Notes under the pieces: model-generated
Database searches by the model: none
What the model saw: only the letters and a program-made list of their open reading frames with translations
Told to the model about the DNA's origin: nothing
Program-made: the position numbers and the translations under genes
In this document: positions 3,543 to 31,907 of the stretch, one piece after another
Position numbering within the stretch: position 1 is the stretch's first letter
Layout of the letters: each line of letters starts with the position of its first letter
Assembly: GCA_039931165.1 (NCBI GenBank)
Contig: JBDTSL010000002.1
Span: 71,134-135,133, forward strand
Direction of reading: 5' to 3'
From: Candidatus Doudnabacteria bacterium
GTDB lineage: Bacteria; Patescibacteriota; Doudnabacteria; UBA920; O2-02-FULL-48-8
DNA length: 64,000 nucleotides

Positions 3543-3620
3543 AGTTTAGTTAGTAGTAGGTAGTTAGTAGTAGGTAGTCTACATACTACCTCACTACGTA
3601 CTACCTACTCACTTAATTCT
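3543..3620. repeat. TAGTAGGTAG direct/inverted repeat cluster between the two trxB paralogs
   Basis: ttagtagtaggtag twice in tandem, followed by inverted ctacctact copies. Could form a stem-loop. Related GTAGG/CCTAC-rich tract at 33001-33060. Confidence 0.5.
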
Positions 3621-4565
3621 CTTAATTTGCGTCCAATCGCTAGACAAACCTACACTGCCTTTTTTCCGCATCATCCAATCATAACATGCCAATGCCGCAG
3701 CTGCTCCTTCTCCGGCGGAGACCACAGCCTGCTTGTACGGCCGGTTGGTCGCATCACCTGCGGCAAAAATTCCGGCGCAGGAAGTGGTTTGATCTGAATC
3801 CACGACTATTTGTTCCTGCTCATCTAACTTTACTATATTTTGCAAAAAATGGGAATTAACAATGTATCCGAGCTCGACGAATAGTCCGTGCAAAAAAAGC
3901 TCTTCCTGTCTGCCTGTTTTCAGATGCATAAGCTTGATGCCGGACAATATTGTTTCTCCCATGATCTCTTGGATCTGAATGAAAGGCACTAATTCCACGT
4001 TTTTTTTCTTAAACAATGCTTTAGTCAACTCGGAATGCGCCAGCAGTTTGTCGGTTTTGGACAAGATATAAACTTTTTTGGCGTATTTTGCGCACAACAA
4101 GCCCGCGTCAGCCGCGATATCCCCTATTCCGGCGATGGCCACCACTTTGCCTTTGAACAATGGCGCGTCGCAAGTGGCGCAATACGAAATTCCTTTACCT
4201 TTAAGGGCCTGTTCGCCCGGTATTCCCAGATCCCTGGGTGTTTTCCCGTACGCCAATATCAACCCTTGGCTTTTGTATTGCTTGCCATAAGCCGTCACCA
4301 CAAAAGCATCAGGCGAGGTTTTTAGTTTTGTCACTTCCGACTGCAAATATTCCGCCCCAAATTTTTCCGCCTGGTTCCTGATCTGGTTGACCAGTTCAAA
4401 CCCGCCAATTTCTTCAATCCCAGGAAAATTTTCAATCGTATCGGTATAATTCGCCTGGCCTGCGACATCCTTGCCGATGACCAGAGTTTTCAGCCCCCGG
4501 CGAGACGCAAATAAAGCTGCTGAAAATCCGGCCACACCCGCTCCGATAATTATGACATCAAACAT
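3609..4565 (-). CDS. thioredoxin reductase-like flavoprotein (second paralog)
   Basis: 318 aa; 'IIIGAGVAGFSAA' FAD motif; 'SYCATCDAPLFKGK' CxxC redox motif; 'IAGIGDIAADAG'. Confidence 0.7.
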   Translation of the reverse strand: MFDVIIIGAGVAGFSAALFASRRGLKTLVIGKDVAGQANYTDTIENFPGIEEIGGFELVNQIRNQAEKFGAEYLQSEVTKLKTSPDAFVVTAYGKQYKSQGLILAYGKTPRDLGIPGEQALKGKGISYCATCDAPLFKGKVVAIAGIGDIAADAGLLCAKYAKKVYILSKTDKLLAHSELTKALFKKKNVELVPFIQIQEIMGETILSGIKLMHLKTGRQEELFLHGLFVELGYIVNSHFLQNIVKLDEQEQIVVDSDQTTSCAGIFAAGDATNRPYKQAVVSAGEGAAAALACYDWMMRKKGSVGLSSDWTQIKRIK

Positions 4566-5412
4566 GGAATTTTTTTATGAAGGATGCATTCGCAACAACG
4601 TTCTCAAGCAACTTGGCCACAGTGATCGGCCCGACTCCTCCGGGGGTCGGAGTGATCAGCGACGCGACATTTCTAACATTTTCGAAGTTTACATCGCCGT
4701 GCATTTTTTTATTGACAAACGACACGCCGGCGTCAATCACAATTGTCCCTTTATTGACCATGCGAGCCTGAATTAAATTAGCTTTACCGACTCCGGTTAC
4801 TAAAATATCGGCCTTGCGGGTCAACTCTGCCAAATTCCTGGTATCTTTATTGCAGGTGGTGAGAGTAACCGGCAAATGCATGAGCAGATTTGCCAAGGGC
4901 CTGCCGATCAGGTCTCCCTGGCCGACCAGGACGATATGTTTGCCGCGCAAATTGACGTGGTAATAGTCTAAAATTTCAAGAACCGCGCCCGGGCTTGGCG
5001 GAGTGAGAGTGTTTTCCGCGATCACCAATTTACCCAGCGATTCCCAGGTCAAAAAATCCACGTCTATTTCGGGATTGATCGCGTTGAGGATTTTTTTCTT
5101 GTCCAAATTTTTTGGCAGAGGAAGCTGAACGATTATGCCCGACAGATCCTGCTTCTGGATCTTTTTGATCGCGGCGATCAATTTGTCCTGCTTGATGGTG
5201 GACGGAAATTTATACAGAGAAAATTTTACGCCAATGCCGAGCGCGGCTTCCTGTTTTTTGCGGACATAGGTTTCCGACGGCTTGTCGGAGCCGACCAAAA
5301 CCACAGCCAAATGCGGCCGCAGTTTCAATTTTTGGATCTGCACTTTCAACCGGTGTAAAATTTTTTGGGCGATTAATTTGCCGTTGACGATTTGAGTCAT
5401 ATGAGCCCTCAT
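4558..5412 (-). CDS. folD: bifunctional methylenetetrahydrofolate dehydrogenase / methenyl-THF cyclohydrolase
   Basis: 284 aa; 'VVLVGSDKPSETYVRKK' and 'GAVLEILDYY...GKHIVLVGQGDLIGRPL' typical FolD. Confidence 0.85.
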   Translation of the reverse strand: MRAHMTQIVNGKLIAQKILHRLKVQIQKLKLRPHLAVVLVGSDKPSETYVRKKQEAALGIGVKFSLYKFPSTIKQDKLIAAIKKIQKQDLSGIIVQLPLPKNLDKKKILNAINPEIDVDFLTWESLGKLVIAENTLTPPSPGAVLEILDYYHVNLRGKHIVLVGQGDLIGRPLANLLMHLPVTLTTCNKDTRNLAELTRKADILVTGVGKANLIQARMVNKGTIVIDAGVSFVNKKMHGDVNFENVRNVASLITPTPGGVGPITVAKLLENVVANASFIKKFHV

Positions 5413-6025: not shown

Positions 6026-6750
6026 ACCTCTTCAGCCGCAAATCCAATCAAGACCTGATCGAACAGCTGGCGAAATCCCGGCAGGATTTTCAGTTTGACC
6101 GCTTCGGCATAAAAAATAAATTGCTCATGAGCCTGGAAAACTCTCCGGAGGAGCCTGTTGCCCATAAATTTTTCACGATCAGGCTGATAAAATATTCCGC
6201 GACATTTGCCGGTCTGTTAATTTTTCTTTCAACCGCGCTTAGTTTTGCCTCAACCGCGAAACCTGGCGATAAATTATTTCCTCTCAATAAACTGGAGGAA
6301 AAAATGATTTTGAACCTGCCGCTGTCAGCGGAACAAAAAGCCGATCTGCAAGTGCGAATAGTCAGCAAACGGCTGGAGGCGCTGAAAGCAGTGGAAAATA
6401 CAACCAACAACGTAAGGCTTCAGGCCAAACAATTGGAGACAGTGAAAGAATCAGACGCAAGCATTAAACAAGCCGTGGACAGCGTGTCCGCCAATAAAAA
6501 CGCGCTCAAGGGTCCTGGTAAAACCGCGACCGAGCAAAAGCTTGACCAAGTGTTAAATCAGATCGATGATCTGGCCCAAAAACACGAGCAGCGGATCCAA
6601 AGCTTGGAAGACTCCGCGTCTGATAAAAACATTAAGCAATCGCTTAACCAGCATCTGAATGAAATAAAAAATTCCAGGCACAAGGCTCAGAATGAGATAA
6701 AATCGCAAGACCACCGGGACCCGGATCATGAAAAAAAATCCGGCGATTAA
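6022..6750 (+). CDS. putative anti-sigma factor (single TM helix + coiled coil)
   Basis: Start overlaps the sigma stop (ATGA); one TM helix 'FAGLLIFLSTALSFAST'; C-terminal Q/K/E-rich coiled coil. No recognisable catalytic motif. Confidence 0.35.
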   Translation: MNLFSRKSNQDLIEQLAKSRQDFQFDRFGIKNKLLMSLENSPEEPVAHKFFTIRLIKYSATFAGLLIFLSTALSFASTAKPGDKLFPLNKLEEKMILNLPLSAEQKADLQVRIVSKRLEALKAVENTTNNVRLQAKQLETVKESDASIKQAVDSVSANKNALKGPGKTATEQKLDQVLNQIDDLAQKHEQRIQSLEDSASDKNIKQSLNQHLNEIKNSRHKAQNEIKSQDHRDPDHEKKSGD

Positions 6751-7579: not shown

Positions 7580-8401
7580 ATGCTCCGACTTACAAAAAAA
7601 TTTATCAAAAGCCGCGACGGTAAGGACCTCTACTACGAGGTGCGCGCTGCAGGGACGGACAAGCCAACCCTATTTTTCCTGCATGGGGTCGGCGGTGATC
7701 TGGATGCCTGGCACTTTGTCGAAAGCGCGCTTAACGCCCAAGGCTTTTCGAGCATTGCCATGGATCTGCGCGGCCACGGACACTCCGCCCATCCCGATAA
7801 GGCAGAAAGTTATGGGATCAATCACCTGGTTGAGGATGTGAGTGTAATTTTAAGGCAGGAGAAGCCCGATAAAATCATTTTGATCGGCCATTCGTTCGGC
7901 GCGATCGTGGCTTACCACTTTGCCCAAGCTTTCCCGGAATCCTTGAAAAAATTGGTTCTAATCTCCCCGATTTTCCATGCTCCTGCTTATTTGAGATCAG
8001 GAGGTTCGAAGAAATTGGCTCACAAGGCAATTGACGTTTTGGCCGGCCTTTCGCCTAAGCCCATCCGCCCCGGACATTCTAAGTATCCGGCCGGCAAATT
8101 CCATAAAGACTATGAAATATTCGGTTTAATTAGGACAATTATGCGGAATTCACTGAAAAGTTACCTGTTGAACTCCAAAATTTCAATAGATCTGGATTCG
8201 GAATCAAACGCTCACCAGCTTCAAACCGAAACCTTGATCATCGCCGGGGACAAAGACAGCGTTTTCCCCGTGGAAAGCACAAAAAGAATTCAATCTAAAA
8301 TCCCGAGGTCAAAAATAGAAATAATCGAGGGCGGCAATCACGTGGTTATTCTCAATAACGCGGATGAAGTTACCCGTTCAATACTGAACTTTTTGAAATA
8401 A
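7580..8401 (+). CDS. alpha/beta-fold hydrolase
   Basis: 273 aa; 'LFFLHGVGGD' oxyanion region; nucleophile elbow 'IGHSFGA'; C-terminal 'GGNHVV' His region. Confidence 0.75.
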   Translation: MLRLTKKFIKSRDGKDLYYEVRAAGTDKPTLFFLHGVGGDLDAWHFVESALNAQGFSSIAMDLRGHGHSAHPDKAESYGINHLVEDVSVILRQEKPDKIILIGHSFGAIVAYHFAQAFPESLKKLVLISPIFHAPAYLRSGGSKKLAHKAIDVLAGLSPKPIRPGHSKYPAGKFHKDYEIFGLIRTIMRNSLKSYLLNSKISIDLDSESNAHQLQTETLIIAGDKDSVFPVESTKRIQSKIPRSKIEIIEGGNHVVILNNADEVTRSILNFLK

Positions 8402-9691: not shown

Positions 9692-10609
9692 ATGAACATC
9701 TGGACTATTTTATTGACTGTGGCCGGACTTTGTTTGTTCGAGGTGGTTAACAGCATAGACAACGCGATCATCAATGCCGAAGTGCTGAGTACCATGAAAG
9801 AAAAAAGCCGGAAGTGGTTCCTGCTTTGGGGAATCCTGTTTGCCGTGTTTATCGTCCGCGGAATACTGCCGTGGCTGATAGTATTCGCGACCACTCCGTC
9901 TTTGGGCCTTCTTGGCTCTTTTGCAGCGACTTTCAGCAATGACCAGGCAGCCATAAGGGCCATAGAACAATCGACTCCGATCCTGTTTTTGGGCAGCGGC
10001 ACATTTTTGATCTTCCTTTTTTTTCACTGGCTGTTTCTGGAGCCAAAAACGGTCGGATTGCCGGGAGAATCTTTCTTCATAAGACAAGGCGCGTGGTTTT
10101 ACGCCCTGGTCTCGGTAATTCTGACCGGCATCGTCTGGCTGGCTCTGAAACAAAACCCCCTTGCCGCCTTCGGCGCTGTGGTCGGCTCCACCGCGTTTTT
10201 CATTACCCACGGATTTAAGGAAAACGCCGAGCAGGCGGAAAAAAAACTGATGAAAGGCGGAATGTCAGATACCGCCAAGATCATGTATTTGGAAGTCATC
10301 GACACGACATTTTCGATCGACGGGATCTTGGGCGCGTTCGCATTTACCCTCTCGGTTCCTTTGATCGTTCTGGGAAACGGGTTGGGCGCTTTTGTGGTGC
10401 GGCAAATGACCGTGGGCAACATAGAAAAGATCAAACAGTACCGTTATCTGAAGAATGGCGCGATGTATTCGATACTGGTCTTGGGCACGATAATGCTCCT
10501 GGACGGATTCGGGATTCACTCTGCCCCGTGGGTTTCTCCGGTCATAACTTTTGCGATCATCAGTTATTTCTTTTTTAAATCAAAACAATTGATAAAGCCG
10601 GCCCAATAG
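9692..10609 (+). CDS. TerC/DUF475-like integral membrane protein
   Basis: 305 aa, about 8 TM segments; 'NSIDNAIINAEVL' resembles the TerC-family (E/S)xDNAxx motif. Confidence 0.5.
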   Translation: MNIWTILLTVAGLCLFEVVNSIDNAIINAEVLSTMKEKSRKWFLLWGILFAVFIVRGILPWLIVFATTPSLGLLGSFAATFSNDQAAIRAIEQSTPILFLGSGTFLIFLFFHWLFLEPKTVGLPGESFFIRQGAWFYALVSVILTGIVWLALKQNPLAAFGAVVGSTAFFITHGFKENAEQAEKKLMKGGMSDTAKIMYLEVIDTTFSIDGILGAFAFTLSVPLIVLGNGLGAFVVRQMTVGNIEKIKQYRYLKNGAMYSILVLGTIMLLDGFGIHSAPWVSPVITFAIISYFFFKSKQLIKPAQ

Positions 10610-11955: not shown

Positions 11956-13944
11956 TTAGAAACCATAGGCTCTGAAATCCGTTTCGTTGATATTGTGGAT
12001 CGAATCGGGATTCAATCCGAGAGTTGGAAGAGAATTGAATATCCCTACATTCCTTTTGCCACTGATAGAATATACGCTACCGTCTTGCGGGCGCATGATC
12101 AGGTCAGTAGCGGGAAAGTATGCCAATTCAGCTTGGTTAATAGTAACGATATCCGAGGCATGCCATCCGTAAGAATTAAAAACTTCCAGGCTGACGATGC
12201 CCCGCCTAGAACCGAGGTTATTCAAGACATATACCTCATCGTTGCCCGGCACGAGGACCAAAGAAGCCGAAGGAATCACATCCACAATGCTCTGCGGTAG
12301 GTCATAAACGGCGTCCAACGGAAAGGCCAGAGAACCTACCGTCGTTTTGGGGTCCACCGGAAGTTTTTTGTTGTTTTGGATGACATACACTATTTTATCT
12401 GCCATGCCGCGGATGAGCATTCCGTCAGGGTATTGATTTTGAGGACCGGCATAGGCCGAAGCCGAGGCCAGAACTTTCATATAACTATTCTGGACATCCA
12501 GTTGTACCAGGACAACACTGGAATTGTTGTCATACCGCCCCTCAATAAAATGCTGGCGTGGATCGACGTTGAACGACAGGCGGTAAACGCCGCTTGGCAT
12601 ATCAGTAATGTCAATAAATTGATCGGGCAGGGAATATAAATACACATCCGCCCACCCCACCGACACGCCTTGCCGACCTTTGTTGCATGTTGTAAAAAAT
12701 TTTTTTCTTGACGCGCCATTCAAGCTCAGATTCACTGCCAGGTCGTCGCGCATGCAGAACGTCGTTTTTTGCCTAACCTCGGGAGGGATGATTAACGGGG
12801 CCTGGTCCGTTACCGGCTTTACCGGCTCGAGGACATAATCGGCAAAGTCACTGAAATGAAAATGCAAGTGTGCCTGATGCCACAAAAAATTCCCCACTAC
12901 CTTGTCGCGGATATTGCCGCTAGGATCGATAATGTGCTGAAACGATTCCAAATATATGTCACCTTTAACTTTCGCAAGCGTGGGATCCGTGATCAGGTCC
13001 AGCCTGCCGTTTCCCTGGTTCCAAAAATTGGAAGTAAATCCCAGAATAGTCCGGCCGCTTCTGGTAGCCAAATAAACATCCTGCATCGGAAACGGAACCA
13101 GATCAGGCAAAGCATTCTCTTCCCCCGGAAACAACAATCTGGTGGTCAGCTCAGTGATCTGTTCTGCTTCCTGATAACGGTCCAGGACGGTGCTTGATAC
13201 CGATACCACATTTGTCCAACGGAAACCCTGTACCCGGAACGCCTCCGGTGAAAGTATCCAACGTTTCATCCCGTTCAGAATATAATATACTTTTGGATCA
13301 GAAATGGCCTGGACCAAAGTTCCGTCAGTTAAAATTGCCGAATCCGGCAGAACTTTTCTGTTGATAACCGAACCGGCAACATTTCCATTTGAAACAGCAG
13401 CCGTGTCTTTATAATTCAGCGGGTCCAGATCAGGCAAAGCCAAATCCGCGCCATTTGCAGGCACCACGCTGTTCGTTTGCCAATTCCAGGAATTAAAAAC
13501 CTTAATATCCGGAATTAACTGCTTTCCATTGTTAACAACTTTAAATATAGCAGGGCCGATTTTTATCAATGCCCCTGGCGGGTGGGGCAGATCTTCCGAA
13601 ATCACCGGCTGGCCAGCCGGATAATCAGATAGGTTCGCTTTTACTGTCTGTGAAAATTTGTACCCCAGACCGGTAAACACTTCCGGGCTTACAAATCCGC
13701 GCTTTATGCCGGAATCAATAATGTATATTGTCCCATGATTATCGGACGTATCAAGTACAAGAATCCCATCGGCCAACAGGGTATCTGCTATGGCGCTCGC
13801 GGCTAAGGGCGCAATTCCAATTGCCAGTACCAGCAAAAAAGAACCGAACATGATACTGATTCGGTTTTGCAAAAGTAATGCTATAATTGGCTTCTCAAGG
13901 CTTGAAGAAGGGTGGCTCATCGCTTTTTGTTTTGGGTTCTGCAA
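11956..13944 (-). CDS. secreted lysyl oxidase-like copper amine oxidase domain protein with flanking ~45-aa repeats
   Basis: 662 aa. Residues ~350-475 'WHQAHLHFHFSDFADY...RQKTTFCMRDD...GWADVYLYSLPDQFIDITDMPSGVYRLSFNVDP...YDNNSS' align with the LOX catalytic domain (WEWHSCHQHYHSMDEFSHY...GHKASFCLEDT...[20 protein letters not shown]...SDYSNN). His triad, LTQ Lys and Tyr are conserved. Signal peptide from Met32. At least 5 copies of a motif 'hYhI.nG.KR.I.S.E.F...G(Y/F/W)....V..V....L..Y'. Confidence 0.7.
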   Translation of the reverse strand: MQNPKQKAMSHPSSSLEKPIIALLLQNRISIMFGSFLLVLAIGIAPLAASAIADTLLADGILVLDTSDNHGTIYIIDSGIKRGFVSPEVFTGLGYKFSQTVKANLSDYPAGQPVISEDLPHPPGALIKIGPAIFKVVNNGKQLIPDIKVFNSWNWQTNSVVPANGADLALPDLDPLNYKDTAAVSNGNVAGSVINRKVLPDSAILTDGTLVQAISDPKVYYILNGMKRWILSPEAFRVQGFRWTNVVSVSSTVLDRYQEAEQITELTTRLLFPGEENALPDLVPFPMQDVYLATRSGRTILGFTSNFWNQGNGRLDLITDPTLAKVKGDIYLESFQHIIDPSGNIRDKVVGNFLWHQAHLHFHFSDFADYVLEPVKPVTDQAPLIIPPEVRQKTTFCMRDDLAVNLSLNGASRKKFFTTCNKGRQGVSVGWADVYLYSLPDQFIDITDMPSGVYRLSFNVDPRQHFIEGRYDNNSSVVLVQLDVQNSYMKVLASASAYAGPQNQYPDGMLIRGMADKIVYVIQNNKKLPVDPKTTVGSLAFPLDAVYDLPQSIVDVIPSASLVLVPGNDEVYVLNNLGSRRGIVSLEVFNSYGWHASDIVTINQAELAYFPATDLIMRPQDGSVYSISGKRNVGIFNSLPTLGLNPDSIHNINETDFRAYGF

Positions 13945-14069: not shown

Positions 14070-14780
14070 ATGTTTAAAAAAGTTATCTTAATTATCGGCG
14101 TCATTCTGCTCACTCTGGGGCTTAATTTCTTATTTGCCAAAGAGCGTATTTCTGTTGCCCAAAACTCTGCGCAAAAGCCGGCCATAGCCGGGATATCAAC
14201 CACTACGTCAATACGAGGAGGGGTTGAGCCGCAAATAGCCGGGATCTCAACGACCGAAAACTCAGAGGCGACTGCCGCTCCGATTTTCACGGCTCCTATC
14301 AGCAATGCTTTGGCGAGGATAACAGCAAAACCACTCGGTATTTACATAACGCCCGAAACTTCCCCTGTTCCGGATGATATCTTTACCGGTTTCCACGCGG
14401 GCGTGGATTTTGAAATCACAGCGGCCGAACAAAATATAGACGTGCCTATCATGGCGATCTGCACCGGCAAATTAAGAACCAAGGAATGGGCGAAAGGATA
14501 CGGCGGTGTCGCGGTGCAGGATTGTATTTTGGACAACCAGCCTGTGACTATAATTTACGGCCACATGAAACTTGATAGCATCATTGCCATTGAAGGAGCA
14601 GAACTTAAGCAAGGTGATACACTGGGAATATTGGGCCAAGGATTTACTTCTGAAACCGACGGCAGACGAAAACATCTTCATTTAGGGATCCATAAAGGCA
14701 ACGGTCCCAGCATCTTGGGTTATGTCCCGGCCAAGCAAGATCTGGCAGAATATATTGATATCACAAATTATTTGAAATAA
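14070..14780 (+). CDS. M23 family metallopeptidase (LytM-like)
   Basis: 236 aa; N-terminal TM anchor; 'FHAGVDF' (HxxxD) and 'KHLHLGIH' (HxH) zinc motifs. Confidence 0.8.
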   Translation: MFKKVILIIGVILLTLGLNFLFAKERISVAQNSAQKPAIAGISTTTSIRGGVEPQIAGISTTENSEATAAPIFTAPISNALARITAKPLGIYITPETSPVPDDIFTGFHAGVDFEITAAEQNIDVPIMAICTGKLRTKEWAKGYGGVAVQDCILDNQPVTIIYGHMKLDSIIAIEGAELKQGDTLGILGQGFTSETDGRRKHLHLGIHKGNGPSILGYVPAKQDLAEYIDITNYLK

Positions 14781-26100: not shown

Positions 26101-26703
26101 CGGGATGCGGCGCTTGCGGTCGATTTTCACGCTGATCACGCCATTGAGGTCGGTTTCCACCTCGAGCCAAGCCCCGCGGTTGGGAATGATCTTTGCGCCA
26201 TACCAATTCCTGCCCCTGGCTGGTTCGCCTGTGAAGAACACGCCCGGAGATTTCACAAGTTGCGACACGACCACGCGCTCCACTCCGTTGATCACAAATG
26301 TGCCGCGCGGCGTCATCAATGGAAAATCACCCAAGTAGACATCTTGGGTTTTGGTCTTGCCTGTGACCTTATTGACCAGCTTTACCGAAACATACAGAGG
26401 CGCTTCGAAAGTCGTATTGCGCTCTTTGGCGGTTTTTTCGTCGTACTTCGGTTTATCCAAATAGTAATCGCCAAAAAACAATTCCAAATTCTTGCCGGTA
26501 AAGTCCTTGATGGAGTTGATTTCGGCAAAAAGTTCTTTCAAGCCCGTTTCCCACAACCATTTGTAGGATCGAATCTGCGATTCGATCAAGTTGGGCATTG
26601 CCAAAACTTCGTGAAAAGGAGTAAAAAACTTTCGGAGACCCTGTTGACGGTTGGGACCTGGCAAATTAAGGCTTAAATTAGCCATTTTTACTTTTTGAGG
26701 CAT
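23197..26703 (-). CDS. rpoB: DNA-directed RNA polymerase subunit beta
   Basis: 1168 aa; 'PNLIESQIRSY' N-terminus; 'GDKMAGRHGNKGV' rif-region/active-site motifs; 'EMEVWALEGYGAAHTLQEMLT'. Confidence 0.95.
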   Translation of the reverse strand: MPQKVKMANLSLNLPGPNRQQGLRKFFTPFHEVLAMPNLIESQIRSYKWLWETGLKELFAEINSIKDFTGKNLELFFGDYYLDKPKYDEKTAKERNTTFEAPLYVSVKLVNKVTGKTKTQDVYLGDFPLMTPRGTFVINGVERVVVSQLVKSPGVFFTGEPARGRNWYGAKIIPNRGAWLEVETDLNGVISVKIDRKRRIPITALMRVFKFGTDEEILAAFADVDTNPDMRYIQNTLEKDPSKSADEGYKEVYKRIRPGDLATVDNARSLIEAMFFHADRYDLSEVGRYKLNQRLNVKDREDRILTKEDLTDIIREIIRLNNSQGIMDDIDHLSNRRVRAVGELIQQKFRVGLARMSRIAKDRMSLAEIETVTPAQLIHVRPIVAVIQEFFSSSQLSQFMDQTNPLAELEHKRRLSAMGPGGLSRERAGFEVRDVHRSHYGRLCPITTPEGPNIGLVAHLASYARINDFGFIETPYRKVKKNVANDGKAAVGETALVDLLDANEEVVVSAGEKISKEAAEKLSLNKTLAALKIKPRMTDDIQYLDAYEEQFTVIAQATVLSEPDGSFTELRTSARVNAEPSIAETADIDFVEVSPKQIISVTTSLIPFLEHDDANRALMGSNMQRQAVSCIKPDSPVVGTGVEAKAAYDSGQVVISETDGIVLSVTGDKIIILPSKSGKAGSGSAGKKEYLLQKFIRSNTSTSINQHPTVTKGQEIKAGQPIADGAAIEKGELALGQNMLVAFMSWEGGNYEDAILISSRVVEQDRYSSIHIEDFKVDLRDTKLGPEIITRDIPNVGEEKLKDLDENGVIRVGAQIKAGDILVGKITPKGETDLTAEEKLLRVIFGEKSRDVKDTSLTLPHGEYGKVVNIREFSREQGDKLPSGVIRSIQVSVAVLRKIQVGDKMAGRHGNKGVISQVIPVENMPFMADGTPVDIILNPLGVASRMNIGQILETHLGLAAKKLGYKVASPALDGVPEEIIKAELKRAGYPEDGKVYLYDGKTGTQFIEKVTVGIIYMLKLHHLVDDKMHARSTGPYSLITQQPLGGKAQFGGQRFGEMEVWALEGYGAAHTLQEMLTIKSDDVVGRAKTYESIVKGEPIKKPNVPESFRVLVKELQSLCLNVELIGEKLALDDAAELREMTTTDRVEEKVKELEFAGDKAGKKKKLKK

Positions 26704-26991
26704 GCCTTTTAGTAGGAAAATTACTTAATAATTTATTAAACGATAAAATAATTCGCGGAAAAAATTAATCCCAGTAGAATTTGGCTAACATTAGCCATTA
26801 TATATGTTTCGAGGATACGAAACATATACCGAATTTCTTCTACAGGGCATAAAAACAACTCCCTTTTTCGCATATGCAAAAAAGAGCCGTCGTGGGCTAT
26901 ACTCTTATTAAATTAAATATCACTTGTGTATAATAAACTTTTTTAGAAAGTTGTCAAGTTTAGAGTTTTGAGACTTCGATTTTGAAAAAAC

Positions 26992-27017
26992 TAATTACGT
27001 AATTAAATATGTAATTC
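26992..27017. repeat. 26-bp terminal inverted repeat, left copy (taattacgtaattaaatatgtaattc)
   Basis: Exact reverse complement of 30615-30640; itself contains the palindrome taattacgtaatta. Confidence 0.85.
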
Positions 27018-27047
27018 AGTATATATTCGTTAGTATCCATTCTTAGA

Positions 27048-30000
27048 TTATTTGTTTTCCAGTCTACAAATTTCTAAATACGTTTGATTAACCATTTTAT
27101 CAATATTAATAATGGTTTTCTCATCAGAATAATTTTTATGTGCTAGTTTTGAAAAGTCAGATAGCTGTTTATGACGCTGATTGCTCTTAGAATATCGTGG
27201 AATAAAAACCGGAGGGCGAATCTTAAAGCTTCTTGAATCAGAGGAATTCGTAATAAACCTTTGGGTAATGGGCGCATTCAAGATTGCGCAGACAAAGTGT
27301 GCTTCGTCAGTAGAAATAAATTCTCCATCTTCTCTTTCACACATTGAAACAGCGTGATTTTGGAATACCGGGCGCTTTTTACCTCCCCAATCTGTTTCTA
27401 TTTCTTCTACAACCGCTGCCTGCCATTTTGTGTTATCGCGAAAAGTTACATATGTTTTTGCGAAGCTATATGCACCGACGCGCGCTAGTGCATAAAATTC
27501 CTTCTCCCTTTTGCCGATGATCTTCTCGTTATAGGCTGTCTGAGCTTCAATCGCCGCTTTATTATCGAGTATGTATTTAGCTAGATTGGGTGATTTCTTT
27601 CTTAGTTCACTAAGAATGAGTGGAACTCGAGTACTGAAAGATTTTTCATATGGAAAAGGTACGACAAATTCAGAATCTACATTGAGATGATACCTCTCGA
27701 TATTGATACCTTTTATTAAAGGATATACGAACATCTTTTCAAACAAAACATCCTGAGCGGGAATTTTATGTTTTGAATGTTCATTTTGATAGTTGTTTAA
27801 ATAGATCTCATTTTTTCTTTTTGGCATTTCATCGTCTATTTCAAAAAGAAATAGTTCTTGAGGGTAAAACTCAACTCCCTCTCTACCTATATAGCTAGAC
27901 TTACCGGAGATTACCCTGAATTGTTCTAAATCTTTGGATGAATCAGCGTACGAAAAGTTAGTGCTTCCTTTTATGCATTGCCCCATTAATTTATGCTCAA
28001 TCCTAAAAGAATCCCTTACTTCATCATAGCGGATATGTTCGTTAATTTTCTCTATCTTGTTACCAGATTTTTTTATAAAGAATGATACATCAATTCCTTT
28101 TTCGTAATCTGTAACTTTGTCGGAAATAAAATAGGTCAAAAATTTATGTTGTACGGGTTGAAAAGGATGTCCTGCCTTAGTCCAATCAAAGATATTTTGG
28201 AAATATAATCGTTCGCCATTAGAAAGATAGAAGTTTCGGAAACCCTCATAAGTCTGAAGGAGCATTAAGTTTTGTGGCATTAGGAATGCCAAGATGCCAT
28301 TTTTATTCAACCAGTTATCAGCCGCTACGTTAGCGATCAATGCACAGACGTTTAGATTTATGCCGCCAGTTAAACCATCGCCGGAAAATAGGTGGCGTTC
28401 AATACATAGTGATTTAATTCTGTTTCGATAACCTTCTGGTAAATTACGCCAATCAATCCAAGGAGGGTTTCCTACAATTAATTCAAATCTACCAAGGCTC
28501 GCAGTTGTGAGAAAATTAGTAACTATTCGCGCCCAAATACCATTCCATTCATTTTTTTCCAGATCAATAAATTTCTTTGCCAATTCATCAATTTTTTCAC
28601 TTATCTCTGGTATTAGTTCTTTTGAGTTGGCAAGACCCTTTATCTTTGTTGCAACTGCTGACCAGTCTAAAGATTTAATATCGTATTCAATCTCAGTCAT
28701 TGTCTGTGAAAAACGATCAGTATTTGAGACAACGCTTTTAGGTAAAACAATATCAATGGACCCCTTTAAGGTTTTAATGTGGTAACCAAGACACTCAACA
28801 TCTTTTATCTTCTGCGGTTCTGGTACATAAGATGAATCCCCGAGATAAATTGGGATATTAAAACGAATACCTTCTTCAATAAGATGTGCTGTATTTATAA
28901 AATAATTTACTCGACCTGTTAGAACCGACAAGGGATTAAGATCAATTCCTTTAACACGAGATAGTATCTCCTTTATTCTATCTGTACGATTTTCAGATTG
29001 CGTTTCCTCAAGAACTTTCTGAATGCCCACTATCAAAAAAGTACCCGAACCTGATGTTGGATCTAGCATCCTCCAATTATCCTTTTTCTTTAGTTGCGAA
29101 ATTGACTCCAGTACTAAGTTATCAGCTAGCCATGCTGGCGTGTAAAATTCTCCCAAACTATGTCGAACCTTTGAGGGCACAATATGCTGGTATAACTCTT
29201 TGAAGAGATCGTGTGTCCTTACTTGCTCATGCACAAGAACCTTATCCTCATATTTTGAAAGGACTTGTACGACTTCAACAATCTTTTTATGTATCTCTTT
29301 TGACCATTGTTGCTTTGATGCGTACCAAGAGAAATAATCACCCTCCAACAAATTGTTTATACCAATAGTCCTGAAGATCTCACCATCTTCAAGAGAGAGC
29401 ATTTTCATTTGAAGAACGGCTGAGTTGGCTTGAGCTATGTCACCAAATTCAAAAATGTTTTTATTAAAATAGATTTTACTTACCACTTTAAAAGCGATGA
29501 GCTTAACAATCAGAGCGTAGGTCGTTTGCAGAGCATAGAGGGCAAGGTATTCCTCTCTATTTGTCTTTATACCAACATCGATAGCAGTAGACAGTTCTTT
29601 GCGCCGGTCTTGCAGATCTCGTTGTTGAGAAGTGTCATCGTGAGATAGTTTGAAAAGCTCCTGCCACTCTTCAAACAACATTTCAGTCTTTGGTTTCATC
29701 TCATCGAGGAGCGTTTTGTAAAATACCTTTGTTAGTTGTTTTGCGAGATTGTCATCCAAAGGTTCACAAAAATCTCGAATTAAATTATCCGACGTGAGAG
29801 CTATCTGCTCCAATAGGATAATAGTTTTTACTAATCTATCTAATGAAGTTGGCGAAATGTCCATCCAAGCCTCTGTGTAAATTTGGCCACCCTCACTTCG
29901 GATAAACCTGCAAATAACACCATCAGTAACTAGGCCAAGATAATCTGTGGGGTTTTTTACATTTAGACCCCGCAGGTAATCTTCAAGCTGTGAGGAAGCC

Positions 30001-30380
30001 TTTTCTTTAAGTGTCGAAGTTTTTAGCTTGCTAGGATGTTTAAATTCAATAACAAATGCCCCGTACTTACTGTCGATTCTTCCTTGAGCAATATGCCTTT
30101 CTGTTCCGACGAATTTTTCTTTTTCAGGATAATACTTAAGACCAAGTTCGTTATTAATGAAGGAAAAAAGATTTAGTTCAAAACTGCTGACAACGGTTGC
30201 TTCATTTTCAGCAGTTTCGGAGCGCCTTTTAATAGCTAAAACAAGGCCCGGGAGCTTATTTCGATAGTCTGTAGAATATAATTTCTTAGTTACTGATTCA
30301 TTCATGATGTTATCTAACAAAATAGCGGCTAGTTTACCCGTTTTCTGATTTAATTCTAAACCAAATACGGCCAGACTCAA
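27048..30380 (-). CDS. Type IIG/IIL restriction-modification fusion enzyme (MmeI-family-like: PD-(D/E)xK nuclease + gamma-class N6-adenine MTase + TRD)
   Basis: 1110 aa, ~33% GC. N-terminal 'GRIDSKYGAFVIEFKHP' matches the MmeI D-x9-E-x-K nuclease motif; 'GEFYTPAW' motif X; 'MLDPTSGSGTFLI' motif I; 'GNPPWIDW' motif IV; long C-terminal target-recognition region. Confidence 0.7.
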   Translation of the reverse strand: MSLAVFGLELNQKTGKLAAILLDNIMNESVTKKLYSTDYRNKLPGLVLAIKRRSETAENEATVVSSFELNLFSFINNELGLKYYPEKEKFVGTERHIAQGRIDSKYGAFVIEFKHPSKLKTSTLKEKASSQLEDYLRGLNVKNPTDYLGLVTDGVICRFIRSEGGQIYTEAWMDISPTSLDRLVKTIILLEQIALTSDNLIRDFCEPLDDNLAKQLTKVFYKTLLDEMKPKTEMLFEEWQELFKLSHDDTSQQRDLQDRRKELSTAIDVGIKTNREEYLALYALQTTYALIVKLIAFKVVSKIYFNKNIFEFGDIAQANSAVLQMKMLSLEDGEIFRTIGINNLLEGDYFSWYASKQQWSKEIHKKIVEVVQVLSKYEDKVLVHEQVRTHDLFKELYQHIVPSKVRHSLGEFYTPAWLADNLVLESISQLKKKDNWRMLDPTSGSGTFLIVGIQKVLEETQSENRTDRIKEILSRVKGIDLNPLSVLTGRVNYFINTAHLIEEGIRFNIPIYLGDSSYVPEPQKIKDVECLGYHIKTLKGSIDIVLPKSVVSNTDRFSQTMTEIEYDIKSLDWSAVATKIKGLANSKELIPEISEKIDELAKKFIDLEKNEWNGIWARIVTNFLTTASLGRFELIVGNPPWIDWRNLPEGYRNRIKSLCIERHLFSGDGLTGGINLNVCALIANVAADNWLNKNGILAFLMPQNLMLLQTYEGFRNFYLSNGERLYFQNIFDWTKAGHPFQPVQHKFLTYFISDKVTDYEKGIDVSFFIKKSGNKIEKINEHIRYDEVRDSFRIEHKLMGQCIKGSTNFSYADSSKDLEQFRVISGKSSYIGREGVEFYPQELFLFEIDDEMPKRKNEIYLNNYQNEHSKHKIPAQDVLFEKMFVYPLIKGINIERYHLNVDSEFVVPFPYEKSFSTRVPLILSELRKKSPNLAKYILDNKAAIEAQTAYNEKIIGKREKEFYALARVGAYSFAKTYVTFRDNTKWQAAVVEEIETDWGGKKRPVFQNHAVSMCEREDGEFISTDEAHFVCAILNAPITQRFITNSSDSRSFKIRPPVFIPRYSKSNQRHKQLSDFSKLAHKNYSDEKTIINIDKMVNQTYLEICRLENK

Positions 30381-30436
30381 ACGAGTTTACTTCTTCCAAT
30401 TATTGATCCGACTTCGCCAAAGTCTTGTCTGACAAG

Positions 30437-30613
30437 TCAATTTTTCCAGTCTTTAATTATCAAATGCCTGCCCTGGAGTTTGACTACCACCTTCTGTTTC
30501 TCGCGCCAGCCGAGTTTTTCAATCATTTCTATAGGCAAAGTCACGGCTAAAGACTTCTTGCCAAGGCGAGTTATCTTGCGAATATTCTGTTCACTTTGTT
30601 TTCTGACTCCCAT
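30437..30613 (-). CDS. AbrB/MazE/SpoVT-type swapped-hairpin DNA-binding protein (58 aa), absent from the ORF track
   Basis: Hand translation MGVRKQSEQNIRKITRLGKKSLAVTLPIEMIEKLGWREKQKVVVKLQGRHLIIKDWKN. 'LAVTLPIEMIEKLGW...VVKLQGRHLII' fits the AbrB/MazE fold consensus. 56 nt upstream of the RM gene on the same strand. Confidence 0.6.
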   Translation of the reverse strand: MGVRKQSEQNIRKITRLGKKSLAVTLPIEMIEKLGWREKQKVVVKLQGRHLIIKDWKN

Positions 30614-30614
30614 G

Positions 30615-30640
30615 GAATTACATATTTAATTACGTAATTA
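30615..30640. repeat. 26-bp terminal inverted repeat, right copy
   Basis: gaattacatatttaattacgtaatta; exact reverse complement of 26992-27017; begins 2 nt upstream of the AbrB-like start codon. Confidence 0.85.
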
Positions 30641-30686
30641 AAAACCATTGCGATTTGCCTTTATTCTGGCATAATTTTATTTTTAA

Positions 30687-31907
30687 TCAAATCTCTACCG
30701 GCTGCCGCGGGCGGAGGGAAAGTCCGAACAGCAACAGGAGCATTCCCAAAGACGCCATGACCCAGCTCAAGCTCACTTTATCAGCCAAAATTCCAACTAT
30801 TATGGTGGGCAGGGTGGCCGCCACCTGGAGCAGGATATTCAGGGTCCCGTAAATCCGGCCGCGGAGATGCGACAGGGCATAAGTTTGGAGCAGAGAATGA
30901 CTGGGAGCGAATATATGAGCGTTAAAAAACCCGATGGCGAAGGCGATAATTGAATAATATACATACCTGTAAGTAAAGTATTCGATCAAAGACAAAGCCA
31001 TGATCATGGCGCCCATTCCGATAAATCCGGCAAAAATCAGAGTTTTTTTCGAAAAACGCCGCTCTTCTACACCCAAAAGCAGGGATCCGATCAAAATCCC
31101 AATTCCCAGAGGCGCGACCACAAGCAAAGAGCCTCTGTTCAAATTAATGCCGATCTCCTGCTGCATGAAAGCCGGCGCGATCGTGATCATCATGCCGTTG
31201 ACCACTTGAATCGCGATCAGGCTCATCAGCGGAAAATGCAGGGTTTTGTTTTCCAGCGCGTGCCTGATCCCTTCCATGATCTCATGCCAAATTTTGACCA
31301 ATGAAAAAGTATTATTCGTCTTTCTTTCCGGCGGCAAGGCAGGAAGGGATAGTGTCGCCAATCCGGCCAGGATCAAAAGAATAACGCCCAAAAAATACGG
31401 AGCGCTCTGGCCAAAAGCCAGGATTACCGGGCCAGCCGCGGCAAATCCCACGATCAATGCCACGCTTCCGGTAAAAGCAAAATAGCTGTTGGCAATTAAA
31501 ATCTGCTCCTTCGGCACCAACATCGGGATCGAAGGCGCTTCGGCGGGAATATAAAACTGATTCAGGGAAGAATACAGAAAAGTGATAATGATCAGGCCAG
31601 AAATATTGTCGCCGACCAAAAAATACAGACCAATGCTCGCGGCCTGGAGAAAATTTATTACGGTCAGGATCCATTTGCGGTCAAACCGGTCGGAAAAAGC
31701 CCCGGCTATGCTTCCAAAAAAAATCGTGCCCAGGCCGAACGCAATGATGATCAGCGAAACCGAAACCGACGAATTGGTCAGCTGAAAAACTTTGATCAGA
31801 ATGGCAAAGCTCAACAGGTAATTGGTCAGCTGGGAAGCAGCCTGTGAGATCCAAAGCTTGGTGAAGTCCCAGTTCTTGAGTACCGCCAAATATGATTTGA
31901 AGCTCAT
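30687..31907 (-). CDS. MFS transporter
   Basis: 406 aa, 12 predicted TM helices; N-terminal 'WDFTKLWISQAASQLTNYL' typical of the MFS family. Confidence 0.8.
   Translation of the reverse strand: MSFKSYLAVLKNWDFTKLWISQAASQLTNYLLSFAILIKVFQLTNSSVSVSLIIIAFGLGTIFFGSIAGAFSDRFDRKWILTVINFLQAASIGLYFLVGDNISGLIIITFLYSSLNQFYIPAEAPSIPMLVPKEQILIANSYFAFTGSVALIVGFAAAGPVILAFGQSAPYFLGVILLILAGLATLSLPALPPERKTNNTFSLVKIWHEIMEGIRHALENKTLHFPLMSLIAIQVVNGMMITIAPAFMQQEIGINLNRGSLLVVAPLGIGILIGSLLLGVEERRFSKKTLIFAGFIGMGAMIMALSLIEYFTYRYVYYSIIAFAIGFFNAHIFAPSHSLLQTYALSHLRGRIYGTLNILLQVAATLPTIIVGILADKVSLSWVMASLGMLLLLFGLSLRPRQPVEI

Follow-up and report, generated by a model that had tools for sequence, protein, structure and literature searches.

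An AbrB-fold protein and paired operator-like inverted repeats in a Type IIG restriction-modification cassette inserted upstream of rpoB in a Doudnabacteria genome

Small dedicated regulators of restriction-modification (RM) genes are well known. To our knowledge, the known RM controllers are only the helix-turn-helix (HTH) controller (C) proteins, which mostly serve Type II systems made of two enzymes. The Patescibacteria have very few regulators and no genetics. Here we analysed a stretch of 64,000 nucleotides, the window, from contig JBDTSL010000002.1 (assembly GCA_039931165.1) of a Candidatus Doudnabacteria bacterium, in which a Type IIG RM gene is preceded by a gene for a 58-aa protein of the AbrB fold. 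Both genes lie between two inverted repeats, here called the proximal and the distal arm, upstream of rpoB. An earlier note on this DNA had proposed that the repeats are terminal inverted repeats (TIRs) of a mobile RM cassette, operators of the AbrB-like protein, or both. On comparative sequence data the arms are most likely operators and not transposon ends, since similar boxes abut the start codons of homologues and the insert overshoots both arms. On balance, we regard the locus as a horizontally acquired defence cassette in which the arms are paired operators of an AbrB-fold analogue of the C proteins and possibly act as roadblocks. Full-text literature searches of incomplete coverage turned up no account of an RM controller with the AbrB fold, nor of this repeat. 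The features of the locus are, by position in the window:

26943–26957, minus strand: relic of the original 3′ end of the major facilitator superfamily (MFS) transporter gene, TTGACAACTTTCTAA, the first six bases of which are the −35 element of the rpoB promoter
26958–30701, no strand: horizontally acquired DNA, 3744 bp with 36.5% GC, comprising promoter, proximal arm, abrB, Type IIG gene and distal arm
26992–27017, minus strand: distal arm, with both boxes inverted (B′-A in gene direction)
27048–30380, minus strand: predicted single-chain Type IIG RM enzyme, open reading frame (ORF) of 1110 aa from a TTG
30437–30613, minus strand: DNA-binding protein of the AbrB/MazE/SpoVT fold, 58 aa, putative cassette controller (abrB), assigned by PF04014, profile and structure model
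30615–30640, minus strand: proximal arm, box A AATTACGTAATT and then box B AAATATGTAATT, 1 nt short of the abrB ATG
30663–30690, minus strand: predicted weak cassette promoter, TTGATT-16-CAGAAT, outside the arm and overlapping the new MFS stop codon, read by eye
30687–30701, minus strand: new MFS 3′ end from the insert, reading P-V-E-I-stop where the ancestral gene had L-T-T-(S/F)-stop

As the earlier note had stated, the arms are perfect inverted repeats of 26 bp (26/26 complementary), spaced 3597 nt apart. At 26992–27017 the arm reads TAATTACGTAATTAAATATGTAATTC, and its reverse complement stands at 30615–30640. When the window was searched for the 26-mer with up to three mismatches, only the two arms were recovered, and no match was found in 100 dinucleotide-preserving shuffles. 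The palindrome described within each repeat was found to be 14 bp long (TAATTACGTAATTA) and to form the outer end of each arm. Its core is box A, and each arm is composed of two tandem 12-bp quasi-palindromic boxes, A and B. The distal arm lies 30 nt past the stop codon of the RM gene and 34 nt ahead of the −35 element of the rpoB promoter. An array like the proximal arm also precedes the abrB homologues of L014, L021, L145, L166 and L217 (L numbers denote fetched loci). The arms enclose only two ORFs, each of them on the minus strand, in line with the two genes of 58 and 1110 aa that had been reported. The GC content of the segment bounded by the inverted repeats, previously given as about 33%, was measured as 36.6%, against 48–50% in the flanks.

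Other identities for the arms were considered and rejected. The 12+12 boxes, each an internal palindrome, differ from the 11-6-11 layout of a dif/XerCD-like site (compared by eye), and two copies in 64 kb are far too few for a DNA-uptake or REP-like repeat. The arms are not promoters either, as the consensus scan was empty there and no consistent −35/−10 pair lies inside them. An Rfam search of window positions 26400–31000 gave no match.

The assignment of the 58-aa protein to the AbrB/MazE type was borne out by domain, profile and fold searches. Pfam PF04014 matched residues 16–53 with 32.5 bits (cut-off 24.7), the protein ends 5 residues beyond this match, and PF04014 was the only Pfam match, with no HTH family among them. 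In the PDB, a profile built from 46 homologues matched B. subtilis AbrB in its N-domain, with an E-value of about 0.01. The AlphaFold2 model showed four strands and one helix (pLDDT 72), and the top 10 Foldseek matches in the PDB were all MazE, AbrB or SpoVT. Foldseek probabilities were 0.44–0.98 (at least 0.84 for the top seven) at a query-normalised TM-score of about 0.5, and the E-values were weak (0.1–1.2), as expected for a monomer model of 58 residues. As modelled, the protein has the swapped-hairpin beta fold. Membership of the C protein family was rejected because there is no XRE-type HTH; the gene and the palindromes at its 5′ end are placed as in a C-protein system. A Type II toxin-antitoxin module was rejected as well, since the next gene encodes the 1110-aa RM enzyme and no tail extends past the AbrB domain. 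A scan of the GTDB species genomes with the AbrB alignment yielded 339 relatives, nearly all of them in Patescibacteria. Several AbrB paralogues can occur in one genome, each with its own box variant, and metagenome-assembled genomes with two to four loci were seen (e.g. CAYNHB01 with L059, L062, L076 and L092). L023 has paralogous AbrB loci at 3557 and 4048, and L061 carries a tandem duplication of abrB (4472–4648 and 6029–6205) with upstream regions identical at 68 of 69 nt.

Upstream boxes were compared in 80 fetched loci and in exact-protein look-ups, about 90 homologues in all from Patescibacteria (candidate phyla radiation, CPR), with gene maps of the fetched loci made by a simple longest-ORF caller. 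Almost every AbrB homologue has two to three tandem 12-bp quasi-palindromes within 70 nt upstream, and in most loci the array ends within a few bases of the abrB ATG. The sequence of the boxes varies between loci, e.g. AATACGTATT or AATTACTGAATT/AATTCAGTAATT. Furthermore, a locus's own array is found again within 10 kb with a frequency of 10.6 per Mb, which is 8.5 times that of the arrays of other loci (1.24 per Mb). Recurrent arrays at the start codon, with a sequence specific to the locus, are what one would expect if an autoregulator acted on its own operator.

The nearest AbrB homologues (71–82% identity) stand directly upstream of differing defence systems:

L014: MmeI-family enzyme
L015: Type IIG/ISP-like enzyme with SduA_C and PD-(D/E)xK genes
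L016, L017 and L030: Type III system
L215: Type I system
L216: MazG with two SLFN-like helicases
L217: Dcm and Vsr
L219: N6_N4 methyltransferase

Remoter homologues precede parts of RM systems, RadC and Fic genes, and also ordinary genes. In other clades, a second copy of the array is found in direct orientation. For instance, in L082 the cognate array occurs three times in direct orientation (6139–6172, 7800–7838 and 9961–10000), one copy before each successive gene or gene pair. L020 likewise has three direct copies before successive genes or gene pairs (9961–10000, 13807–13842 and 14381–14399), a punctuated layout resembling a cassette array. In L016 (5772–5990; also in L017) and L216 (228–390), a small element containing ...gagcatattctactggggtaatt...cattcccgcgtaggcgggaatccatgc... 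stands between abrB and its operator array. The window has a similar stretch, attctactgggattaatt..ttccgcgaatt, at about 26740–26782, inside a small insertion upstream of rpoB that is described below. In these genomes, the separating element may be a MITE-like repeat (MITE, miniature inverted-repeat transposable element).

An inverted copy of the 24-mer formed by the two boxes stands at the far end of the cargo in six of the seven loci with at least 4.4 kb downstream in the clade closest to the window, namely the window, L014, L015, L030, L215 and L216. Among these six cassettes, the DNA identity of abrB is 67–82%, with 39–63% at third codon positions, and the 40 nt on either side of the distal arms are 27% identical, which is the random level. 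The distal arms themselves are identical at 21–24 of 24 positions (mean 96%), and the window's distal arm shares its 24-nt core with those of L030, L215 and L216. In L215 and L030 the distal arm is exact despite an altered proximal array, and also in L216, where the small inserted element has moved the proximal array ~180 nt from abrB. In L016 the proximal array is displaced by about 250 nt, and the far end lies beyond the fetched locus. Exact distal arms beside altered or displaced proximal ones argue against functions that need matching arms, such as transposase ends, looping between identical arrays or pairing of 5′ and 3′ RNA. Judged from this sequence conservation, the distal arm is a selected feature and not an accident.

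The insertion upstream of rpoB, as claimed in the earlier note, could be mapped against empty sites. Four related Doudnabacteria contigs (L010–L013), with MFS homologues of 74–76% identity, lack the insert; these relatives are only about 75% identical in protein. All four have the gene order RuvA, FemAB, LOG-like, TsaB, MFS, rpoB, rpoC, with a gap of only ~110 bp between MFS and rpoB. This shared order indicates that the MFS-rpoB adjacency is ancestral in the lineage, and the absence of rplJL, which the earlier note had pointed out as usual before rpoB, was therefore not caused by the cassette. The junctions were placed to within 1–2 nt by alignment with L010–L013. The window tracks the empty sites to ...CGCGGCAG (30702) and picks up again at TTGACAACTTTCTAA (26957), and at the mapped junctions nothing of the target was lost or duplicated. 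The insert overshoots the proximal arm by 61 bp and the distal arm by 34 bp. No transposase or recombinase was found in the cassette or among the flanking genes. As the insert extends beyond both arms, without a transposase and without a real target duplication, the arms are not the termini of the element.

The insertion replaced the last four MFS codons. In this lineage, the −35 element of the conserved rpoB promoter sits within the last MFS codons (window 26930–26957; L010 9206–9240; L011 5722–5756). The promoter in the window, TTGACA-16-TATTAT, matches at 11 of 12 positions, and the cassette landed at most 1–2 nt from its −35 element and left it intact. Taken together, the alignments indicate that the cassette is a horizontal insertion.

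A second, small insertion relative to the empty sites (window 26686–26844, minus strand, ~148 nt) separates the 5′ untranslated region (UTR) of rpoB from the start of the gene at 26685. Its duplication of the rpoB start region (ATGGCTAATGTTAGCC at 26798–26783, ATGGCTAATTTAAGCC at 26685–26670) creates a decoy ATG with a 20-codon ORF (MANVSQILLGLIFSANYFIV), and the insertion also has the hairpin tatatgtttcg...cgaaacatata. Another hairpin, CTCTTTTTTGCATATGCGAAAAAGGG followed by a T-run, is found in the rpoB 5′ UTR (window 26861–26886, minus strand), was scored as terminator-like and is kept in all four related contigs. It had no Rfam match and may be a leader or attenuator of rpoBC.

The cassette promoter predicted outside the proximal arm scores below the threshold of the consensus scan. 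Comparable −35/−10 pairs are found 13–23 nt upstream of the arms in L014 (TTTGCA-17-TAAAAT), L166 and L217 (TTGCTT-17-CACAAT), and the motif AATAAAGGCAAAT is common to the window and L217. If these predictions are right, the arm would fall within the first 10–40 nt of the transcript and the functional unit would be larger than the segment bounded by the inverted repeats. No intrinsic terminator was predicted between the stop codon of the RM gene and the rpoB promoter.

The cassette would thus run, in order, from a weak promoter over a two-box operator, the gene of the 58-aa regulator and the Type IIG gene to an inverted two-box operator. In the mechanism that we propose, the arms would be binding sites for dimers of the AbrB-fold protein, two per arm and 12 bp apart. 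Bound to the proximal arm, between the predicted promoter and the start codon, the protein would throttle its own operon, which is the job of the C proteins in Type II systems. At the 3′ boundary, the distal arm would be a second site under selection of its own, where the bound protein would, in the mechanism we prefer, block elongating RNA polymerase. Such a block would keep transcription of the cassette out of the rpoBC promoter and antisense transcription out of the cassette. We hold loosely, and by analogy, to a protein roadblock as the single idea that may fit most cases. C.Kpn2I is described as a C protein that acts as an elongation roadblock (PMC6237814).

The enzyme was examined as well. 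Its 1110-aa ORF begins at a TTG. The homologues, which cover 96–98% of the query, are 1086–1090 aa long, so that translation probably starts at the ATG at 30305, for a protein of 1085 aa. The PADLOC profile REase_MTase_IIG (PDLC03630) matched residues 38–1095 at profile positions 3–1068 of 1100, with an E-value of 7.9e-159. In Pfam, Eco57I scored 35.1 bits (cut-off 25.3) and N6_Mtase 28.3 bits (cut-off 20.4). The description as MmeI-like was not supported, since MmeI_Mtase (PF20473) reached 16.4 bits where the cut-off is 27 and none of the four remaining models of the family (MmeI_N, MmeI_hel, MmeI_TRD and MmeI_C) had a match; the protein is better described as a Type IIG enzyme with an Eco57I domain. 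The translation contains the nuclease motif D103-x9-E112-F-K114 (D-x9-ExK, residues 103–114), and the methyltransferase motifs are LDPTSGSGTF for S-adenosylmethionine (SAM) at residue 439 and NPPW at residue 638. The full-length profile match, the PD-(D/E)xK motif and motifs I and IV identify it, by prediction, as a Type IIG RM enzyme. A sequence search of the PDB with the enzyme gave no match. Among its closest relatives (74–80% identity), the upstream slot holds an HTH_17 gene in L001 (1320–1502) and an HTH_3 gene in L005 (229–432), and L002 lacks a small gene there (upstream of 5001). The regulator slot therefore appears interchangeable, as expected for a C-protein-like function. No flanking repeats were found around these three RM homologues.

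Beyond the window, in which the 26-bp repeat has no further copy, the 24-mer recurs in the clade cassettes and also alone. In a motif scan of metagenomes, which returned 117 stretches on contigs without a taxonomic label, the exact 24-mer AATTACGTAATTAAATATGTAATT was present in about 45 stretches, in about 30 unrelated intergenic contexts, with abrB nearby in only five loci. The neighbours of the solo copies include SecA, ThrRS, ValRS, TsaD, ParAB, RelA, topoisomerase I, FtsZ, FtsW, RuvB and UPRTase; no small gene common to them was found beside the solo copies. Examples are L175 (8375–8398), L153 (8539–8562) and L173 (11602–11625), from metagenome loci L105–L213. Two accounts may be given: a regulator encoded elsewhere in those genomes has additional targets, or the element is the site of another factor. 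The position beside housekeeping genes suggests a wider role.

In seven loci, the boxes form fused B′-A-B palindromes of 36 bp, which are perfect in L180 (320–355) and L199 (951–986), have one mismatch in L121 and L148, and are less perfect in L124, L134 and L167. The one in L180 lies upstream of an abrB homologue, that of L199 between GrpE-like and HIT-like genes. Long hairpins around the palindrome ATTCGCGCGAAT, e.g. gactggacaattcgcgcgaattgtccagtc, were seen up to ~60 nt from the 24-mer in L030 (6967–6995), L098, L105, L112, L123 and L174.

A number of observations weigh against paired operators with roadblock function. The seventh locus of the clade with enough downstream sequence, L018 (77% identity), has no distal arm. 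In L015, L215 and L216, and at an internal site of L030, the inverted arm ends 1–12 nt ahead of the ATG of the next gene, which in the first three suggests control of that gene instead. In L014 and L030, intrinsic terminator hairpins follow the distal arm, so that a roadblock is not needed there. The promoters are weak and were read by eye. Moreover, no co-variation was detected between box type and protein (within-group identity 0.553, between-group identity 0.544, a difference reached in 239 of 1000 permutations) with a crude classification of box types that left 62 of 89 loci unclassified. Lastly, since about 30 exact 24-mers have housekeeping genes as neighbours and no abrB for several kb around, another protein could be the binder.

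These points were weighed together with four other explanations. The arms could be recombination or transposition sites of a non-autonomous cassette moved in trans, either TIRs or att-like sites derived from the 36-bp B′-A-B palindrome. Perfect 26-nt inverted repeats around cargo of foreign composition, the differing cargo between the same arms in six loci and the 5-nt AAAAC beside both arms would fit this, and the fused B′-A-B is what a crossover in the palindromic A box would leave as a circle junction. However, the junctions lie outside the arms (26958 and 30701, with the arms ending at 26992 and 30640), AAAAC is not found at them, and the empty sites contain no A box. The cassette encodes only AbrB and the RM enzyme, and its predicted promoter, which has a motif in common with L217, is placed outside the proximal arm. 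From one locus to another, the sequences that adjoin the arms on the outer and on the inner side are unrelated; because of the unrelated outer DNA, an IS200/IS605-like element with subterminal hairpins was also rejected. Direct second copies in other clades, exact distal arms beside displaced or altered proximal ones and the lack of any match to the motif pattern in viral contigs point in the same direction. In addition, the repeat occurs without RM genes, with other cargo and alone, an outcome of the kind that the earlier note had named as refuting, and the closest RM homologues do without it. A TIR transposon was therefore rejected. A transposase acting on the cassette in trans is possible, but we consider recombination sites of any such kind unlikely. 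About equally unlikely is that the 24-bp element is a dispersed chromosomal site of a host factor other than AbrB (nucleoid-associated, or acting in termination or segregation), of which the cassettes merely carry copies. The solo copies are its support: at orthologous sites the 24-mer is unchanged at 24/24 positions in flanks that are 82–86% identical, a gene ends just before the A side in 13 of 14 solo contexts, and in seven the neighbouring genes converge on the site, a setting in which one would not look for a promoter. Against such a factor, arrays precede almost every AbrB homologue, mostly at the start codon and with locus-specific sequence, which is the usual signature of autoregulation. 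Furthermore, the window has two copies only, both in the cassette, and genomes with solo copies could encode the regulator elsewhere.

Less likely still is that the window's distal arm has no function and was left over from the operator of an adjoining unit in the donor island. The arms that abut the ATG of a following gene in L015, L215 and L216, and inside L030, would agree with such an origin, as would the end of the window's insert 34 nt past the arm with no such gene following, and a recent transfer could also explain the exact identity of distal arms. In contrast, the arm matches the proximal one at 26/26 positions, and its 24-nt core is that of L030, L215 and L216, although the synonymous divergence of abrB is saturated. 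Least probable of all, and very improbable in itself, is that the arms act as RNA, with the abrB-RM transcript pairing its 5′ leader to its 3′ trailer over 26 nt to control translation or stability. The arm apparently lies in the transcribed leader, the distal arm follows the stop codon by 30 nt with no predicted terminator before it, and complementarity is perfect. Nevertheless, pairing cannot be the selected trait where distal arms are exact and proximal ones altered or moved (L030, L215 and L216), the element also occurs alone, it has no Rfam match, and no compensatory changes between proximal and distal arms have been seen across the cassettes so far. We thus keep to paired operators of the AbrB-fold protein. 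A bolder and, in our estimate, unlikely extension is that the 24-bp A-B element and the 58-aa protein form a portable, protein-dependent transcription gate, of which solo copies would punctuate the housekeeping operons of these reduced genomes as sequence-specific insulators or roadblock terminators. If so, inward-facing elements at both ends would free toxic transferred defence cassettes from the context of their insertion.

Among known systems, non-autonomous cargo transposons and pdif modules resemble this cassette in having short inverted repeats around genes, variable cargo and no recombinase of their own. They differ in that the window's insert does not end at its repeats and has no target duplication, and its 12+12 sites are not the XerC/D sites of 11-6-11. 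With MmeI-family enzymes of Types IIG and IIL, the window's enzyme would share the order of domains in one chain: a PD-ExK nuclease at the N-terminus, next a helical spacer, then an N6-adenine methyltransferase of the gamma class (NPPW) and last a domain for target recognition. The Pfam MmeI domains, however, are absent or below cut-off, and no solved structure is detectable by sequence; a true member of that family is the cargo of L014.

The 58-aa protein shares PF04014 and the predicted fold with the AbrB/MazE/VapB/SpoVT antitoxins and transition-state regulators, which act as dimers on palindromic operators at their own promoters and, as here, are encoded by the first gene of a two-gene operon with a toxic partner. 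Unlike these, it is only 58 aa long, has no C-terminal toxin-binding tail or tetramerisation domain, and is partnered with an RM enzyme of about 1100 aa in place of a small toxin. Some of its remoter homologues are followed by Fic or RadC genes. With the BrxR/WYL regulators of defence islands (PMC9122601, PMC9122589) it has in common that one family stands beside many defence systems, with repeats upstream of its own gene. Its fold, on the other hand, is unrelated, it has no ligand-sensing domain, a second site lies at the far end of the cassette, and the family is almost entirely confined to Patescibacteria.

The closest parallel is with the C proteins of RM systems, such as C.PvuII, C.AhdI, C.Esp1396I and C.Kpn2I. 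As in these, a small DNA-binding gene stands directly upstream of the nuclease gene and in the same orientation, adjacent palindromic sites (here predicted) lie at its own promoter or leader, and the presumed role is the timing or limiting of nuclease expression after transfer. The closest relatives of the window's enzyme even hold an HTH_3 gene in the same position. The window's protein differs by its AbrB/MazE swapped hairpin in place of the HTH, by 12-bp boxes unrelated to C-boxes, and by an enzyme that is a single-chain Type IIG. Moreover, its clade serves Type I, II, IIG and III systems as well as cargo other than RM. By analogy, the 58-aa protein is a putative functional counterpart of the C proteins outside their family, and a different fold thus appears to have taken the role of RM controller, in one clade that travels with all four types and other defence cargo. 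None of the C-protein systems described has a counterpart to the strongly conserved second, inverted site at the cassette's 3′ end. Together, the 58-aa protein and the 24-bp site would offer a testable handle on how foreign toxic genes are insulated beside the essential rpoBC.

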